Of a DNA stretch of 64,000 bases, positions 2,764 to 21,485 are shown one piece after another (the stretch's first letter is position 1; the number at the start of each line of letters is the position of its first letter). The position numbers and the translations under genes are program-made. Origin of the DNA: a virus. Its lineage: Duplodnaviria; Caudoviricetes. Location of the stretch: the IMG/VR virus record IMGVR_UViG_3300008107_000634, positions 1,991-65,990 of that record, one strand, 5' to 3'. The notes under the pieces were generated by a model. It did no database searches and was not told where the DNA came from. It saw nothing but the letters and a program-made list of their open reading frames with translations.

Positions 2764-3234
2764 TTATCCTTTCATGGCAGCAAGCCGCCTGTTATGGTGG
2801 GTGGAATTGATTACGCGAACCCCGAGCGCGCGGATAGCTTCGATTACCGACAGGTTATCGTCGAACATAACGACCGACCGGAACTTGTCGAGCAGCGGCT
2901 TGATAAGCCCCGTTTTAAGCGCAGCGTCGGGCGTGTCAAAGTCACCCTTGATGCGATGAAGCATGATATCGTGATCCAGCCGATGGAACTTGAGATAATG
3001 CAGATCCATATCGTGCATGGTCCGCGAGGTGCAAACCGCGACCGTAGTATCGGGATCGCGATTAGCAAGTCGCATGGTGCGGGCCAAAGGCAGAAGCGTA
3101 TCACGAAACACGGTCTTGCGCGTCTTTAGCGCAAGAAACGCATGGACATCGACGCTACCATCCGGCAGACGAGGCGTCCGATGGTCAGAGTCGATAACGG
3201 TGCCGTCGAGGTCAAAGATGAATAGCTTTTTCAT
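2764..3234 (-). CDS. HAD-family phosphatase (polynucleotide kinase 3'-phosphatase-like)
   Basis: FDLDGT motif I, CTSR motif II, K and FDDN motif IV. Confidence 0.85.
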   Translation of the reverse strand: MKKLFIFDLDGTVIDSDHRTPRLPDGSVDVHAFLALKTRKTVFRDTLLPLARTMRLANRDPDTTVAVCTSRTMHDMDLHYLKFHRLDHDIMLHRIKGDFDTPDAALKTGLIKPLLDKFRSVVMFDDNLSVIEAIRALGVRVINSTHHNRRLAAMKG

Positions 3235-3743: not shown

Positions 3744-3819
3744 TGGTGGGTGCCGTGGGGCACGATCCCACAACCCTCGATTTAAAAGACCGATGCTCTA
3801 CCAATTGAGCTAGGCACCC
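3744..3819 (-). tRNA. tRNA-Lys(UUU)
   Basis: Cloverleaf: acceptor GGGTGCC/GGCACCC, loop CT-TTT-AA, encoded CCA; atypical T-loop ATCGTGC. Confidence 0.9.
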
Positions 3820-4193: not shown

Positions 4194-4270
4194 TGGTGGG
4201 CCGAGAGGGACTTGAACCCCCGACCAGACCGTTATGAGCGGCCCGCTCTAACCAACTGAGCTATCAGCCC
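4194..4270 (-). tRNA. tRNA with CAU anticodon, most likely Ile2 (lysidine-type)
   Basis: Cloverleaf, loop CT-CAT-AA, C4-G69 and an Ile-type body, encoded CCA. Confidence 0.88.
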
Positions 4271-6832: not shown

Positions 6833-7057
6833 CTACATGGCTTGTGGCGTGTTCACCATCGCCCACTCTAGCAACTCGATGCGATTACGCAGCTTCACCT
6901 CCAGCGCTGCGCTCACGCCCAGGAGGCGAGCCTGCTCCTTCACCTCAGCGCGGAGTCGCTTGATCTCCTGCGCCATATTCATCTCCGCTGCGGTGGGGCC
7001 TGCGTTCTCGGAGTCTCGTAGAACATCAACTTGAAATTCCCGGTAGATGTCGCTCAT
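6833..7057 (-). CDS. coiled-coil hypothetical protein (MSDIYREFQ...)
   Basis: GGAGG RBS before the inferred start. Confidence 0.55.
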   Translation of the reverse strand: MSDIYREFQVDVLRDSENAGPTAAEMNMAQEIKRLRAEVKEQARLLGVSAALEVKLRNRIELLEWAMVNTPQAM

Positions 7058-7209
7058 GGCTCGGCCTCCTTCTCCGCAACCTCGAACGCGTGCGAGCAAT
7101 ACTTACCGCAATAATCATCCTCAGACAAGCAAAGGCCTACATAAATCCCCGCAAGGAAAACAAGTACCAATACCCACAATATCGCCAACCCGATTGCAAC
7201 GATCATGGC

Positions 7210-7786: not shown

Positions 7787-7918
7787 ATCGTTCTCCCTTG
7801 TTGATGAGCACACTCTACACTATCCGCGCAGAGTTGCAACAACTATTTTTTCGTTGAATTTCAAAGGGTTAGCCGCTGGCTGGGGCTCCGCCCTAAGCCC
7901 TTGATATGGCTTAGTTTT

Positions 7919-7994
7919 TGGTAGAGCGTAGGGGATTCGAACCCCTGTCAACGGAGTGAAGTTCCGCTATCCTAGGCCACTAGACGAACGCTCC
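7919..7994 (-). tRNA. tRNA-Glu(UUC) with non-canonical anticodon loop
   Basis: Glu-type body (GTCTAGTGGCCTAGGA...AGGGGTTCGAATCCCCT), stem GCGGA/TCCGT, loop AC-TTC-AC, encoded CCA. Confidence 0.85.
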
Positions 7995-8003
7995 ATAAGT
8001 ATT

Positions 8004-8181
8004 GGGGGCCTCACGTTTGCAACCGTGAGGCCTAACCGACGTTCCCCCAGGCAGGACTAGGCCTTCCATATGAAGGGTACTACCTGCATTTCCACAGTTT
8101 ACAGCGTCTTACTTAGACGACTGGGGCACCAGTTGCGAAGACGTCTTCGCCGGGGTCGGCAGGGCTTTCGCCCGCCCAAAT
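8004..8181 (-). ncRNA. Structured RNA, copy B of a tandem pair (unassigned)
   Basis: Shares identical 44-nt and 36-nt ends with copy A; internal stems show compensatory changes. Confidence 0.7.
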
Positions 8182-8186
8182 GTAGT

Positions 8187-8333
8187 GGGGGCCTCACGTT
8201 TGCAACCGTGAGGCCTAACCGACGTTCCCCTAGACAGGCCTTGCACCTGCATTTCCGCCATCTGCGGCGTCCTTACTTGGACGACTAGGCACCGGCTTTC
8301 GCCGGGGTCGGCAGGGCTTTCGCCCGCCCAAAT
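8187..8333 (-). ncRNA. Structured RNA, copy A of a tandem pair (unassigned)
   Basis: GAAA-capped hairpins, closing stem CCGAC-CCCC/GGGG-AAC-GTCGG, four-way junction; promoter at about 8355-8386. Confidence 0.7.
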
Positions 8334-8457
8334 TCGTTTCTCCGTCGTTGATAGGTGTATCTTACCCGAAATCTTGCCTCATGCAACAACTATTTTTTCG
8401 TTGAGTTTCAATAGGTTAGCCGCGGGCCGGGGCCGGGCGCTAAGCCCTTGAAAGGGC

Positions 8458-13017: not shown

Positions 13018-13275
13018 CTACATTCCAGTAGCGTCGGAGAACCATTTCCAGTCCTTTTCCGACTTCTGCTCCAGACGCTCGACCTCGCGTTCCAGCATCT
13101 GGACGCGGGCGCGAAGGCGGTTGATTTCGGCCACCAGAGGGCTCACATCCTCGACCTTTACATAATCGCCCTCTTCGAGCGGCACCAAATAATCATCATA
13201 ATCTCCGGCGAAATCCCACCGCTGGGGCATCTGGACGGTGGTGGCTTCGGTCATCGCTGTCTCCTTGGTGATCAT
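13018..13275 (-). CDS. hypothetical protein with C-terminal coiled coil
   Basis: 85 aa; a later start at MTEATT with AAGGAG RBS is possible. Confidence 0.6.
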   Translation of the reverse strand: MITKETAMTEATTVQMPQRWDFAGDYDDYLVPLEEGDYVKVEDVSPLVAEINRLRARVQMLEREVERLEQKSEKDWKWFSDATGM

Positions 13276-13306
13276 GGGGTCAGTATAGGCGGCTTCCGGG
13301 ACAAAG

Positions 13307-13495
13307 TCAAGTGCCTATCTCAGGCCACAAGCGGACAAACTGTACCGCGTCCTCCCCTCCATCCAGGAAATGGGCAATCGCGTTCCCATCCTGGTCGCCA
13401 AACAGGAGCACGTTATGCTTGGCGCACAGGGCGCGAAGCTTGGCGACGAAGGCCGCGCGGGACTTGGGGGTCGATTTCTTGGTGGCGTCGGTCAT
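13307..13495 (-). CDS. hypothetical protein (KKSTPKSR family)
   Basis: GAGGAG RBS before MTDATKK. Confidence 0.65.
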   Translation of the reverse strand: MTDATKKSTPKSRAAFVAKLRALCAKHNVLLFGDQDGNAIAHFLDGGEDAVQFVRLWPEIGT

Positions 13496-16876: not shown

Positions 16877-17021
16877 TCGAAATCGAAATTGAATCTAGAC
16901 CGGGGCGGTTCCGAGGACTTGCTTTTTCAATCGGTCTCATCGCTCCTCTCCAGAGCCTTGACCAGGGAAATTTTTTGACTTTTTTAAGACTTCCCGCCAT
17001 AGGCTGAGCCTAGCACACGTT

Positions 17022-17186
17022 ACCAGCGTTTATGCACTCCGTGCATACGTCCGTAACGCAGGTGCACACGTTACCAGCGTCTATGCACTCCGTGCAATCT
17101 TGACCAGCGTTTATGCACTCCGTGCATTAAGACCCACGCCCGTGCAAACGCTTGTGCAAACGCTTGTGCAAACGCCCGTGCAAATA
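17022..17186. repeat. 3x ACCAGCGTYTATGCACTCCGTGCA plus 4x GTGCAAA at a 12-bp period, upstream of terS
   Basis: Units at 17022, 17073, 17103; GTGCAAA at 17142, 17154, 17166, 17178. Confidence 0.85.
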
Positions 17187-17223
17187 AAAAAAAATTGACC
17201 ACCTCTCGGCCCCGTGCTAGTGT

Positions 17224-17664
17224 ATGAGTATGAATGAAATCTCTACCCGCGATGTGCTTAATCGCTCTCTTGAAGCCCCAGAAATAGATCCTGTTCTACT
17301 CGGTATAGCAAACCGCCATATCGAGGGAGACACAATTCAAACTATTGCCACCCAGTTCAATATAAGTGAGGACCGGGTTGCACAGGTTTTAGATCGCCGA
17401 GAGGTTAAGCAATATGTGGATCAAGTCTACTTATCACAAGGATTTCTCAACAGATTCAAAAGAATCCAATTGATTAATCAAGTGATAGAAAAGAAGATCC
17501 AAGATGTTGCTCTTGGAGAAGAATATACTAAGAAAGATCTCCTTGAGTGGCTACGTCTACTCCAGGATATGGATAAGTCAGCTCGTCCGCAACAAAAAGG
17601 TCCTACTGTAGCTGTGCAGGTTAATAACTATGATAGCCTTATGCAAGACCTAATGGAGAAATAA
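17224..17664 (+). CDS. terS: terminase small subunit (T5-like)
   Basis: HTH N-terminus, REVKQYVDQVYL, KKDL and VQVNNYDSLM..L motifs as in T5-type TerS; leaderless promoter TTGACC-17-TAGTGT. Confidence 0.7.
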   Translation: MSMNEISTRDVLNRSLEAPEIDPVLLGIANRHIEGDTIQTIATQFNISEDRVAQVLDRREVKQYVDQVYLSQGFLNRFKRIQLINQVIEKKIQDVALGEEYTKKDLLEWLRLLQDMDKSARPQQKGPTVAVQVNNYDSLMQDLMEK

Positions 17665-18008
17665 TGGCAGGTTTTGGAATAGACCGATATGGTCCCATTT
17701 CACTTTTACGTCCTAGAATTAGTCGCGCTCATACTGTTACAGTTACAGAAGCCGATCAGGTTTTAGGCCCTTGGGCTAGTGAGACTATAGTTATAGGTCT
17801 TGTAGCTAGTGGTGGTAGTGTATTCTATCAAGGTGGTTTTGAAGACACACAAACTAGCCAAGGAGCTAATGCTCATTTCCTTGCTGAGGGAGTTCCGCTC
17901 ATGGTTAACGTAGGAACACCTGGTACGCAAGATAGACATCGTTACATGGCAGTAAGACTTGTAGACCCTACAACTACGGTCCAGTTCTATGTGACCGAGT
18001 TTGAATAA
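17664..18008 (+). CDS. hypothetical virion-associated protein
   Basis: TAATG coupling to terS. Confidence 0.65.
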   Translation: MAGFGIDRYGPISLLRPRISRAHTVTVTEADQVLGPWASETIVIGLVASGGSVFYQGGFEDTQTSQGANAHFLAEGVPLMVNVGTPGTQDRHRYMAVRLVDPTTTVQFYVTEFE

Positions 18009-18173: not shown

Positions 18174-21100
18174 GTGGCCGCTAATGTAAAGATCAGTCAA
18201 CTTCAAGCCTTAAGCACTGTATTGGCCAACAGTTTTGTTCCTGTGGTGCAAAGCGGTGTCACATCTCGTGCTAATCTCACCACTATCTTAGCCTCTACCC
18301 GTGCTAACGACTACTCAACCTATTTAACTCTTACTGCTAATATTTACAATACATATCAGGCTTTATCTGGTGGAGGTGGAGGTGGCGGAGGTGGTATAGA
18401 TCTTAGTCTTGCTTATGCAAATGACTATGCTACTTGGTTAGCCCTTGGAAGTAGTGCTGGAAGTAACCTAGTCTATAAGAACTACTCTTCACAAGGAGAG
18501 ACAACCTTTGAGACAGGTCAGTCTAAACCTGTTAATGCTAATAACCTCTTAGTATACTTAGACGGGATTATCCAGAGACCTAGCGCAGACTATACTCTAG
18601 ATGACACCGGAAACGTTAGCTTTACCTCGGCCCCTCCTGTCGGCAGTAATGTCAATATACTTCAACTACCTCTCGGTAGCGGTGGGACCTATACGCTTCC
18701 AACAGCTTCTAATACAGACCTGGGAGGCGTTCGTGTAGATGGGTCCACTATTACTATTAACAGTGCAGGGGTTATCTCTACCAATCTAGAGGGGACTACG
18801 GCAAATGACTGGGATACCTATCAAGCAGCACTAGCGAATGACTATTCAACGTTAGTTGAATTACGTGGTAACGACTGGGCTACCCTACTCTCTGCGCGTC
18901 AGAATGATTGGGCTACCTATCAAGCGGCACTAGCGAATGATTATTCAACGTGGTTAGCTGCTCAGGCTAATGACGGCGCTACCTTACTCAACGCTCAGGC
19001 TAATGACTACTCAACGTGGTTAGCTGCTCAGGCTAATGACGGCGCTACACTCCTAGAGGCTCGTAGTAATGATTGGGCTACCTATCAAGCGGCTATATCT
19101 AATGACTACTCAACGTGGTTAGCTGCGCAGGCTAATGACGGCGCTACACTCCTAGAGGCTCGTAGTAATGACTACTCAACGTGGTTAGCTGCGCAGGCTA
19201 ATGACGGCGCTACACTCCTAGAGGCTCGTAGTAATGACTATTCAACATACCTAACTCTTACTGCTAATATCTACAATACTTATTCCACTTTACAAAATGT
19301 TAGTGGAGTAACCACTAGCATTGTATATTCTAATGATTGGAATACTTATCAAGCCGCTTTAGCAAATGACTGGTCAACCTTACTTGCAGCTCAGGCTAAC
19401 GACTGGTCAACCTTACTCACAGCTCAGGCTAACGACGGCGCTACCCTACTCTCTGCACATCAGAATGACCATGTTACATATCTCAACGCGCAGGCCAATG
19501 ACTATACAACCTTATCTGCTGCGATTGTTAATGACTACGCAACCTTAGTCAATGCACATGCTAATGATTGGAATACTTTAGTAGAAGCTCGAGCCAATGA
19601 CGGTGTTACCTTAGATCTAGCAAGGGCCAATGATTGGAATACTTTACAAACAGCACGTGCCAATGATTGGGCTACCTACCTTGATGCACAGAGTAATGAC
19701 GGAATTACTCTACTCAATGCTCGCGCTAATGATCTTGTAACGTGGAACAGCGCGCAAGGCAATGACCACTCTACTCTTTTATCTGCGCGTGCCAACGACC
19801 TTGTAACGTGGAACAGCGCTCAAGGTAATGATCACGCTACTCTGTTGAGTGCACGTGCCAACGATTTAACTACTTATCAGGCTGCATTAGCCAACGACTA
19901 TGCGACTTATCTTGCTCTGCAAGGGCAGATAGATAGTACAAATGCTAGCGCTAACGATTGGAACACTCTTTTAGCAGCTAGATCTAATGATTATGCAACT
20001 TACCTTGCTGCCCAGGCTAACGATCTAGCTACATGGAACAGCGCTCAAGGTAATGATCACGCTACTCTGTTAAGTGCACGTGCCAACGATTTAACTACTT
20101 ATCAGGCTGCATTAGCCAACGATTATGCGACTTATCTCGCACTACAAGGTCAAATAGATAGTACAGATGCTAGCGCTAACGATTGGAACACTCTTTTAAC
20201 AGCGCGCGCTAATGACTTTGCAACATGGAATAGTGCTCAGGGTAATGACCACTCTACCTTATTGAGTGCGCGTGCCAATGACCTTGTAACGTGGAATAGC
20301 GCGCAAGGCAATGACCACTCTACTCTTTTATCTGCGCGTGCTAACGACCTTGTAACGTGGAACAGCGCGCAGGGCAACGATTATTCTACTCTGTTGAGTG
20401 CTTATGCTAATGATTGGTCTACTTATTTAACACTTACCGCCAACATATATAACACTTATTTATTAATACAGGCCGGAGCAGAAACTAATGTTGAGATACT
20501 TGTCTATAGTAATGACTATAACACCTATCTTGCAGCTTTATCAAATGACCTTTTAACCTGGAATAGTGCGCAAGGCAATGATCACTCTACCTTATTGAGT
20601 GCTCGTGCTAATGACCTCTCAACGTGGAACAGCGCTCAGGGCAATGACCACTCTACCTTATTGAGTGCGCGTGCTAATGACCTATCCACGTGGAATAGCG
20701 CTCAGGGCAATGACCACTCTACTCTTCTTAGCGCGCGTGCCAATGACTTTGCAACGTGGAACAACGCGCAAGGCAATGATCACTCTACCTTATTGAGTGC
20801 ACGTGCCAATGACCTTGTAACGTGGAACAGCGCTCAAGGGAATGATCATTCTACTTTAATTTCTGCATATGCTAATGATTATAACACATTATCTGCTGCA
20901 ATTATAAACGACTTTTTAGCATATCTTAATACTTTAGCTAACGACGGAGTTACTCTTGCAGAGGCTAGAGCTAATGATTATAACTCTCTTACTTATGTAT
21001 TAGCTAATAGCGTTGCCAGATTTACCGCAGATAAATATTTTGATAGTACGGTTTATAGTAGAGACATAATTCCTCAAGCAAACACCACTTATAGTCTTGG

Positions 21101-21485
21101 GTCCGAAAGTGCTAGATGGGCAAATATTTGGGTTAAAGGTGCTACTATCTTTTTAGGAGACGCTGCGCTCTCTAGCTCTGGAGCTAGTCTATCTTTTCCA
21201 GAAGGTTCTACTCTAAATGGTGTAGATATTCTTGCTAATGACGGCGTTACACTTCTCAGCGCACGTGCCAATGACTATAACACACTACTAGCAGCCCAAT
21301 CTAATGACTATAACACACTACTAGCAGCCCAATCTAATGACTATGGTACTTATTTAACTTTAACTGCTAACATTTATAACACTTACACTGCGCTTAATAG
21401 CAATATATCTGGTGGGGGATCTGGCGGTTCTAGTAATGTAACGGTGAATAAAATGTTTGCAATATCATTAATTTTCGGAGGATAA
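18174..21485 (+). CDS. long fibre-like protein with dozens of 11-residue xNDxxTxxxAx repeats
   Basis: GTG start; KISQL N-terminal motif; 11-aa period; tail-fibre-like IIPQANTTYSLGS..RW near the C-terminus. Confidence 0.75.
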   Translation: MAANVKISQLQALSTVLANSFVPVVQSGVTSRANLTTILASTRANDYSTYLTLTANIYNTYQALSGGGGGGGGGIDLSLAYANDYATWLALGSSAGSNLVYKNYSSQGETTFETGQSKPVNANNLLVYLDGIIQRPSADYTLDDTGNVSFTSAPPVGSNVNILQLPLGSGGTYTLPTASNTDLGGVRVDGSTITINSAGVISTNLEGTTANDWDTYQAALANDYSTLVELRGNDWATLLSARQNDWATYQAALANDYSTWLAAQANDGATLLNAQANDYSTWLAAQANDGATLLEARSNDWATYQAAISNDYSTWLAAQANDGATLLEARSNDYSTWLAAQANDGATLLEARSNDYSTYLTLTANIYNTYSTLQNVSGVTTSIVYSNDWNTYQAALANDWSTLLAAQANDWSTLLTAQANDGATLLSAHQNDHVTYLNAQANDYTTLSAAIVNDYATLVNAHANDWNTLVEARANDGVTLDLARANDWNTLQTARANDWATYLDAQSNDGITLLNARANDLVTWNSAQGNDHSTLLSARANDLVTWNSAQGNDHATLLSARANDLTTYQAALANDYATYLALQGQIDSTNASANDWNTLLAARSNDYATYLAAQANDLATWNSAQGNDHATLLSARANDLTTYQAALANDYATYLALQGQIDSTDASANDWNTLLTARANDFATWNSAQGNDHSTLLSARANDLVTWNSAQGNDHSTLLSARANDLVTWNSAQGNDYSTLLSAYANDWSTYLTLTANIYNTYLLIQAGAETNVEILVYSNDYNTYLAALSNDLLTWNSAQGNDHSTLLSARANDLSTWNSAQGNDHSTLLSARANDLSTWNSAQGNDHSTLLSARANDFATWNNAQGNDHSTLLSARANDLVTWNSAQGNDHSTLISAYANDYNTLSAAIINDFLAYLNTLANDGVTLAEARANDYNSLTYVLANSVARFTADKYFDSTVYSRDIIPQANTTYSLGSESARWANIWVKGATIFLGDAALSSSGASLSFPEGSTLNGVDILANDGVTLLSARANDYNTLLAAQSNDYNTLLAAQSNDYGTYLTLTANIYNTYTALNSNISGGGSGGSSNVTVNKMFAISLIFGG

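Follow-up and report, generated by a model that had tools for sequence, protein, structure and literature searches.

The locus raises a plain question: what are the two closely related sequences that stand in tandem on the minus strand, directly ahead of a tRNA-Glu gene, and what kind of molecule do they specify? The earlier note had described a tandem minus-strand pair with shared ends, read from a single promoter as one unit running through copy A, copy B and then the tRNA. In the window, by which we mean the whole 64,000-nt stretch of viral DNA that was analysed, such a pair is indeed present. It lies within a region of 54% GC (1-17 kb) composed of about 27 repeat-bounded cassettes, which also contains tRNA-Lys, tRNA-Met, a polynucleotide kinase gene and an HNH endonuclease gene. 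The window's terminase is T5-like, with 41% identity to Vibrio phage JSF10 and relatives. Read on the minus strand, a promoter-like site is followed by a leader of about 20 nt, copy A, a 7-nt spacer, copy B, an 8-nt spacer and tRNA-Glu(UUC). Copy A, the minimal form, occupies 8333..8186 (8330..8186 from P1 to P1), and copy B, the long form, 8181..8003 (8178..8003 from P1 to P1). The spacer between the P1 helices of the two copies reads CUACAUU (8179..8185, minus strand), and that between copy B and the tRNA reads AUACUUAU (7995..8002, minus strand). The tRNA-Glu(UUC) gene itself (7994..7919, minus strand) was called by ARAGORN and scores 51.8 bits with the Rfam tRNA model; it is a downstream cargo in the window's lineage only and stands outside the RNA family.

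The single promoter, which had been placed at about 8355-8386, fared less uniformly. As read from the sequence, it spans 8359..8386 on the minus strand, with a -35 element TTGCAT (8386..8381), a 16-nt spacer and a -10 element TAAGAT (8364..8359); an A-rich tract, CGAAAAAATAG, precedes it, and transcription is expected to start near 8352. The 8386..8359 site matches the consensus at 7 of 12 positions and was not called by a consensus promoter scan, but it is conserved in the sister contig L006 and is similar to the promoter of the next cassette, which makes a promoter at this place plausible. No terminator was found between the RNA copies and tRNA-Glu, hence co-transcription of copies A and B with the tRNA, as a single unit, is plausible as well. 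A cassette-boundary hairpin, CTAAGCC...GGCTTAG (7893..7914, strand unassigned), lies 3' of the tRNA. Here and at the other cassette hairpins the T-run is on the plus strand only and the genes are on the minus strand, so that these hairpins would terminate antisense rather than sense transcription.

The two copies are identical over their first 36 nt (AUUUGGGCGGGCGAAAGCCC...GGCGAA, minus strand) and over about 45 nt at the other end (GGGGAACGUCGGUUAGGCC...GGCCCCCA, minus strand). The 64-kb window contains exactly two occurrences of the 17-mer GGAACGTCGGTTAGGCC, which belongs to the 3' block; 0.02 would be expected. Between their ends the copies are set apart by two insertions and by paired substitutions. 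All pairing-preserving differences that had been noticed between the copies were recovered and could be assigned to helices of the fold described below: CCUAG/CUAGG versus CCCAG/CUGGG corresponds to P5, CGUCC/GGACG versus CGUCU/AGACG to P6, the GGC-GAAA-GCC hairpin that is swapped for a longer one to P4, and the extension of GCAGG/CCUGY by CCUUC/GAAGG to P8a. The junction words GGUGC and GGAAAUGCAGG are kept in both copies. Copy B has the core of copy A, but its P4 is longer (CGAAG-ACGU-CUUCG plus a CAA bulge), its P7 is weak and its P8 is lengthened by an internal loop and the hairpin CCUUC/GAAGG. In a test with 200 shuffles both copies folded better than all shuffled sequences (z of -3.9 for copy A and -3.5 for copy B), and the covariance model R1 scores them at 149.9 and 200.9 bits, respectively.

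Homologues were sought by exact or degenerate pattern scans of sequence collections, followed by application of model R1 to the contigs. The pattern scan returned one true contig from IMG/VR (L001) and six from the JGI metagenomes (L005-L010), copy B being 84% identical to L005. The same scan of 185,579 prokaryote genomes (GTDB) gave no genuine match. A match in a Dehalococcoidia gene (L016) and matches in coding DNA (L002-L004, L017-L033) were set aside as chance matches. The small ORF 3' of the RNA in L001 was traced through a protein collection to its encoding contigs, and on these model R1 found more copies in L042-L047, L048-L050 and L052. Model R1 found no RNA in relatives of the 240-aa gene upstream of the RNA (L013-L015, jumbo phages) or in the nearest virus record, G001. 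When the 700-bp region was compared by blastn with 50,697 phage records, only the tRNA was matched (Xanthomonas phage RTH11), the RNA being in no cultured phage record. Altogether, copies A and B and nine further sequences make up 11 distinct sequences of 146-194 nt, and the sources, where named, are freshwater metagenomes. The sister contig L006 is 90-98% identical to the window region and has the same promoter and tRNA-Glu, with a single RNA copy that represents a third variant. Thus the tandem arrangement holds for the window but is not a fixed feature, as L006 and all other loci carry one copy each.

All 11 distinct sequences fit one nested nine-helix fold, which is closed by P1 and built around three junctions. 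P1, P2, P3 and P9 meet in an outer four-way junction, P3, P4 and P5 in a three-way junction, and P5 to P8 in an inner four-way junction. Whereas the core is invariant, the peripheral arms (P4, P7 and distal P8) differ in length. P1 is a 4-bp helix (UGGG/CCCA), P2 a hairpin (GGGC-GAAA-GCCC) and P3 pairs GCCGAC with GUCGGU. In minimal forms P4 consists of 5 bp and a tetraloop (CCGGC-GAAA-GCCGG in copy A); in long forms 4 bp are followed by a 3-nt bulge and an extension of 5-8 bp. P5 is CCUAG/CUAGG, as in copy A, or CCCAG/CUGGG; P6 is CGUCC/GGACG, again as in copy A, or CGUCU/AGACG, and L048 and L049 show the intermediate state, U.G. P7 occurs as CCGC/GCGG (copy A), CCCGU/ACGGG or CCCGC/GUGGG; in copy B and L005 it is marginal and barely stable. 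Next comes the junction GAAAU. P8 (GCAGG/CCUGY; GCAGG/CCUGU in copy A) is capped by a 7-nt loop in minimal forms and continues in long forms through an internal loop, UAGUNU / AAGAAU, which bears a likeness to the loop-E motif AGUA/GAA, into a covarying hairpin. The junctions GGAAC and UUA follow. P9 is a 9-bp hairpin with the loop GUUGCAAA in copy A. Two variants of P9 exist, one with ACG/CGU and the other with CAGG/CCUG, and one of them has an 8-nt loop, the other a 4-nt loop; both retain UGCA at the apex despite the changed stem.

In a model-based alignment of the 11 distinct sequences, 98.3% of the pair cells are standard, compared with 29-55% when the partners are slid, and the covariation score exceeds that of all 500 shuffles. 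Double-sided changes affect four pairs, with compensatory changes in P5, P6, P8a and P9; comparison by hand revealed compensatory changes in P7 and P8a. Thus the structured minus-strand RNA proposed from the two copies shows real compensatory variation, and the nine additional freshwater sequences, fitting the same fold, extend this covariation to further homologues. The sequences are close relatives with a nearly invariant core, which limits the number of independent events to a few; in L049 the GAAA loop of P2 is lost. Single-sided changes convert G-C to G.U or A-U to G.U, the former in P3, P4, P5, P8 and P9. On the plus strand such changes would be A.C mismatches, which points to RNA as the functional molecule and to the minus strand as the functional strand. 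We conclude that the two copies belong to a genuine family of compact structured RNAs. Words of the 11-nt tetraloop receptor (CCUAAG / UAUGG) and a P7 loop that recalls an anticodon loop (CUAAGAA) are confined to one sub-lineage and were treated as coincidence.

The earlier note had found no match to hammerhead, HDV, twister, pistol or riboswitch patterns, and comparison with Rfam 15 (4227 covariance models) led to the same result. At the gathering threshold only tRNAs pass in the window, and at E<=10 nothing overlaps copy A or copy B; the long variants L010 and L008 gave only chance-level matches of 10-16 bits. The RNA is therefore outside every Rfam family tested, a comparison that does not extend to the 10,006 unnamed candidates of PMC10690425. 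The unit of 146-194 nt is single-copy in all loci but one, and the flanking ORFs have no Pfam or PHROGs family, which does not agree with a type III antitoxin. ToxI-like arrays consist of short direct repeats (about 34-45 nt) beside a ToxN-type endoRNase gene.

Apart from the window and L006, all loci belong to a second, jumbo-type lineage, in which a consensus promoter (TTGACA-17-TATACT) is followed by the RNA, 25-50 nt and then a 56-61-aa ORF heading a row of small same-strand genes. This lineage connects via a 56%-identical protein to phages of 142-197 kb, and the T5-like terminase of the window shares only 24% identity with that of the jumbo-type relative G004. One RNA of this lineage (L050:536-683) matches copy A at 100% identity across 147 nt; beyond this stretch the two sequences are unrelated. 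The identity begins at AUUUGGG and ends at CCCCCA, that is, at the edges of P1, where conservation in the family as a whole also begins and ends. That two lineages with distinct terminases share one and the same copy points to recent transfer between them and suggests that the function is independent of genomic context. Filled and empty sites were found as well: near-identical relatives share the upstream gene, the promoter and the downstream ORF, and differ by about 200 nt, which correspond to the RNA and a few flanking bases. L052 (with the RNA) and L053 (without it) encode an identical downstream protein. A group I or other intron was rejected by inspection of a filled against an empty site, as the boundaries do not combine a U before the insert with a G at its end.

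The RNA thus stands behind two different promoters and ahead of two types of cargo, a tRNA or a small ORF. Its arms are reassorted: L006 combines the P4 of L005 with a P7 resembling the one in L010, and each P9 variant is joined to different middles. The invariant ends of 36 and 45 nt would let recombination yield such reassortment. Furthermore, the spacer between copies A and B, CUACAUU, is similar to ACUAACAUUGG, which flanks the module on its 3' side in the other lineage; this suggests that microhomology at AUUGG served to insert copy A in front of copy B. Because conservation stops at P1, filled and empty sites exist, an identical copy has unrelated flanks and the arms are reassorted, the RNA is an autonomous, self-contained module that moves between phages.

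What might such a module do? We tentatively favor a free-standing RNA that is made early and acts in trans. Host RNA polymerase would transcribe it from the upstream promoter as the first element of the transcript, and host RNases, such as RNase P cutting at the 5' end of the tRNA, would separate it from the cargo that follows. The freed RNA would accumulate as a stable, free-standing species that acts in trans through its fold; the most plausible mode is that of a decoy or sponge to which a host or phage protein binds. Self-association via the palindromic loop of P9 (UGCA / UUGCAA) may occur as well, and the tandem pair of the window could represent a recent gain in dosage or of a variant. 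This reading is preferred because of the structure and autonomy of the RNA, the lack of a known family, the variable copy number, the loop palindrome and the precedent of T4 rnaC/rnaD. Several findings count against it. In every case the RNA comes immediately after a promoter and precedes its cargo with no terminator in between, an arrangement that suits a leader acting in cis just as well; independent covariation events are few, P7 is barely stable in copy B and L005, and L049 has lost the GAAA loop of P2; and the neighboring ORFs have no Pfam or PHROG family. It is possible, if still somewhat doubtful, that the RNA represents a new functional class of small autonomous mobile phage RNA, either a new ribozyme or a decoy or sponge against host defense, which fits behind any early promoter and whose arms are swapped by co-infecting phages via the invariant ends.

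An unlikely reading is a new class of self-cleaving or otherwise catalytic RNA, which would cut the primary transcript into unit-length RNAs and cargo. Phage hammerhead, twister and HDV-like theta ribozymes form P1-closed, context-independent intergenic modules, sometimes in tandem or beside tRNAs, and known small ribozymes share the same modular, tandem and mobile habits. The RNA described here is likewise a context-independent module delimited by P1, in which the junction core is invariant and the outer stems vary; in a phage it is present as a tandem pair beside a tRNA, it moves between phages, and a polynucleotide kinase gene lies in the same cassette region. However, neither the hammerhead and HDV models nor those for twister, twister-sister, pistol, hatchet and glmS were matched at E<=10. 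The CUGANGA core of hammerheads is absent from all 11 sequences, and GAAAU is located in a four-way rather than a three-way junction. HDV-like and theta ribozymes have a double pseudoknot, for which there is no room here, as the nested, covariation-supported helices P1-P9 fill nearly all positions. With 146-194 nt, nine helices and two four-way junctions, the RNA is much larger than the small phage ribozymes and large for a self-cleaver. No cleavage site can be read from the sequence, and the 8-nt spacer before the tRNA means that RNase P would still be needed.

A leader acting in cis, be it a processive antiterminator of the put or EAR kind that alters the RNA polymerase transcribing it, a ligand-sensing aptamer or a 5'-end stabilizer, appears unlikely to a similar degree, although the position of the RNA speaks for it: it always comes first after the promoter, is co-oriented with its cargo with no terminator between, and heads a row of small same-strand genes in the jumbo-type lineage. 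HK022 put and EAR are structured RNAs that lie right after a phage or operon promoter and act regardless of the downstream sequence, and unrelated cargo is expected of an element that directs the polymerase. The cassette boundaries of the window have hairpins, but their T-runs lie on the opposite strand, leaving no evident terminator to override; put consists of two simple stem-loops, whereas the RNA has nine helices and is optional, since close relatives have the same genes and promoter without it. The ribosome binding site is 25-50 nt away and shows no complementarity to the RNA. Two related complex folds in a row within a 5' leader recall tandem riboswitch aptamers such as those for glycine; here, however, there is no expression platform, P9 is not followed by a U-tract, the cargo is unrelated and most loci hold a single copy. 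A classical riboswitch is unlikely, because the promoters differ, conservation stops at P1 and the cargo is unrelated. That the cargo is a tRNA in the window's lineage but an unannotated ORF of 56-61 aa in the jumbo-type one speaks against a metabolite riboswitch in particular.

The same three observations disfavor a tRNA-specific role. The earlier note had considered a tRNA-processing element, and the RNA does directly precede tRNA-Glu(UUC), with the anticodon loop ACUUCAC, in the window and in L006, in a region that also has tRNA-Lys(UUU), tRNA-Met and the polynucleotide kinase gene. Yet at the ten other loci no tRNA is near the RNA, outside the window's lineage it is never beside one, and one such copy, identical to copy A, lies in the 5' leader of a small ORF; a dedicated role in tRNA processing is therefore unlikely. 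ARAGORN found only true tRNAs and did not call the RNA. Within the RNA family, the Rfam tRNA model reached 14 bits (E 3.5) at a single place, the inner domain of L008, and the 4-bp P1 and the P9 loop of 8 or 4 nt leave the four-way topology as the only similarity. A helper of tRNA-Glu maturation is very improbable, the distribution of the RNA having already largely refuted it. Least credible, to the point of being nearly negligible, is a DNA-level element, be it a recombination site, an origin or a palindrome bound by protein, or else a gene for a small protein. In its favor, the P9 apex is palindromic as DNA (TTGCAA / TGCA), the module comes and goes in the manner of a cassette, and a TTG- or ATG-started frame enters some copies. 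Against it, the G.U pairs are strand-specific and compensatory changes fall in hairpins far from any palindrome; a conserved peptide is excluded because none of the indels (8, 11 and 23 nt) is divisible by three and the reading frame is not kept between variants, being shifted by 1 nt relative to the upstream ATG. In L048-L051, public gene calls extend the 56-61-aa ORF upstream through the RNA to give the 91-aa protein P0001, an annotation artefact caused by the unrecognised RNA.

The preferred trans-acting RNA has its nearest precedent in T4. According to the T4 record, rnaC (species 1, 139 nt) and rnaD (species 2, 119 nt) are two tandem small stable RNAs with no function annotated, located in the tRNA cluster of this lytic phage on the same strand as the tRNA genes. 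A tRNA-like T-arm in rnaC compares with the cloverleaf-like outer junction found here; rnaC and rnaD are downstream of tRNA-Arg, whereas the present RNA is upstream of tRNA-Glu and elsewhere has no tRNA. Model R1, run with filters off on T4 68-76 kb, did not exceed 4.2 bits in rnaC and had no hit in rnaD, hence no homology. We know of no mobility of rnaC/rnaD between phage lineages. GOLLD and ROOL RNAs are associated with phages or prophages and tRNA genes and are about 3-5 times larger than the RNA described here. They are likewise many-branched and without established function, and in the modeled fold the palindrome of P9 would allow self-association. These large ornate RNAs are reported to form RNA-only complexes (bioRxiv 10.1101/2024.12.08.627333). 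Neither has an Rfam match at E<=10 to the 146-194 nt RNA.

The RNA joins a small group of orphan phage-encoded structured RNAs, from which it differs in its architecture and in its demonstrable transfer between lineages. Phage structured RNAs such as T4 rnaC/rnaD, GOLLD and ROOL are still unexplained. The minimal form of 146 nt is small enough for direct biochemistry and structure work, the natural minimal and extended variants mark the dispensable arms, and natural isogenic phages with and without the RNA exist. Should it prove to be a true ribozyme or an RNA-based counter-defense, a new class would be added; if it is neither, a well-delimited family is added to the catalogue and ORF calls through the RNA are corrected.

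Apart from the RNA, the surroundings in both lineages showed several features. Between 1 and 16000 the window contains about 27 copies of an intergenic repeat of about 44-80 bp (TCAATGGGTTAGC..GGGCCGGGGCC..CTAAGCC..TTGA..GGCTTAG) that bound small, one-promoter minus-strand cassettes. The segment 8825-9128 is without counterpart at that place in L006, which shows that sister phages gain and lose cassettes. At 17000-18000 the composition breaks sharply, from about 54-60% GC on the left to 43%, falling to 30-40% GC, on the right, where the minus-strand cassettes meet plus-strand structural genes (small terminase, 17224-17664); the nearest virus record, G001, does not span this break, and the linkage of the two parts is known from the window only. 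A promoter-leader unit (TTGACn, ttgtcc.ggaagccgcc, TATACT, ribosome binding site) is shared at 75-92% identity between the cassette region (window 13250-13326) and jumbo-type contigs (L001 762-841 and 1784-1832; L010, several places), and pieces of small ORFs are shared as well (window 6951-7072 with L007 551-672). Both phage lineages draw on a common early-gene pool.

The polynucleotide kinase homologue (2764-3234, minus strand; phrog_415, E 3e-23) is located among the tRNA genes, which are tRNA-Lys(UUU), tRNA-Met and tRNA-Glu(UUC) with listed positions 3744-3819, 4194-4270 and 7919-7994; from gene content, this looks like a kit for tRNA repair or replacement against anticodon nucleases. In the cmscan alignment, position 33 of the tRNA-Glu anticodon loop, ACUUCAC, is C, a position at which U is near-universal. 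On the plus strand, a 1103-aa ORF (18174-21485) carries a long array of 33-bp (11-aa) repeats, NDW.TYQAALANDYST-like, and is probably a fibre or decoration protein. Finally, the 240-aa protein upstream of the RNA in L001 (2490-3212, minus strand) ends in ...LEIPDFLRIQTDK, a tail that we take to resemble the conserved C-terminal peptide of FtsZ (DIPAFLRKQ) and that could mimic its FtsA/ZipA-binding tail.
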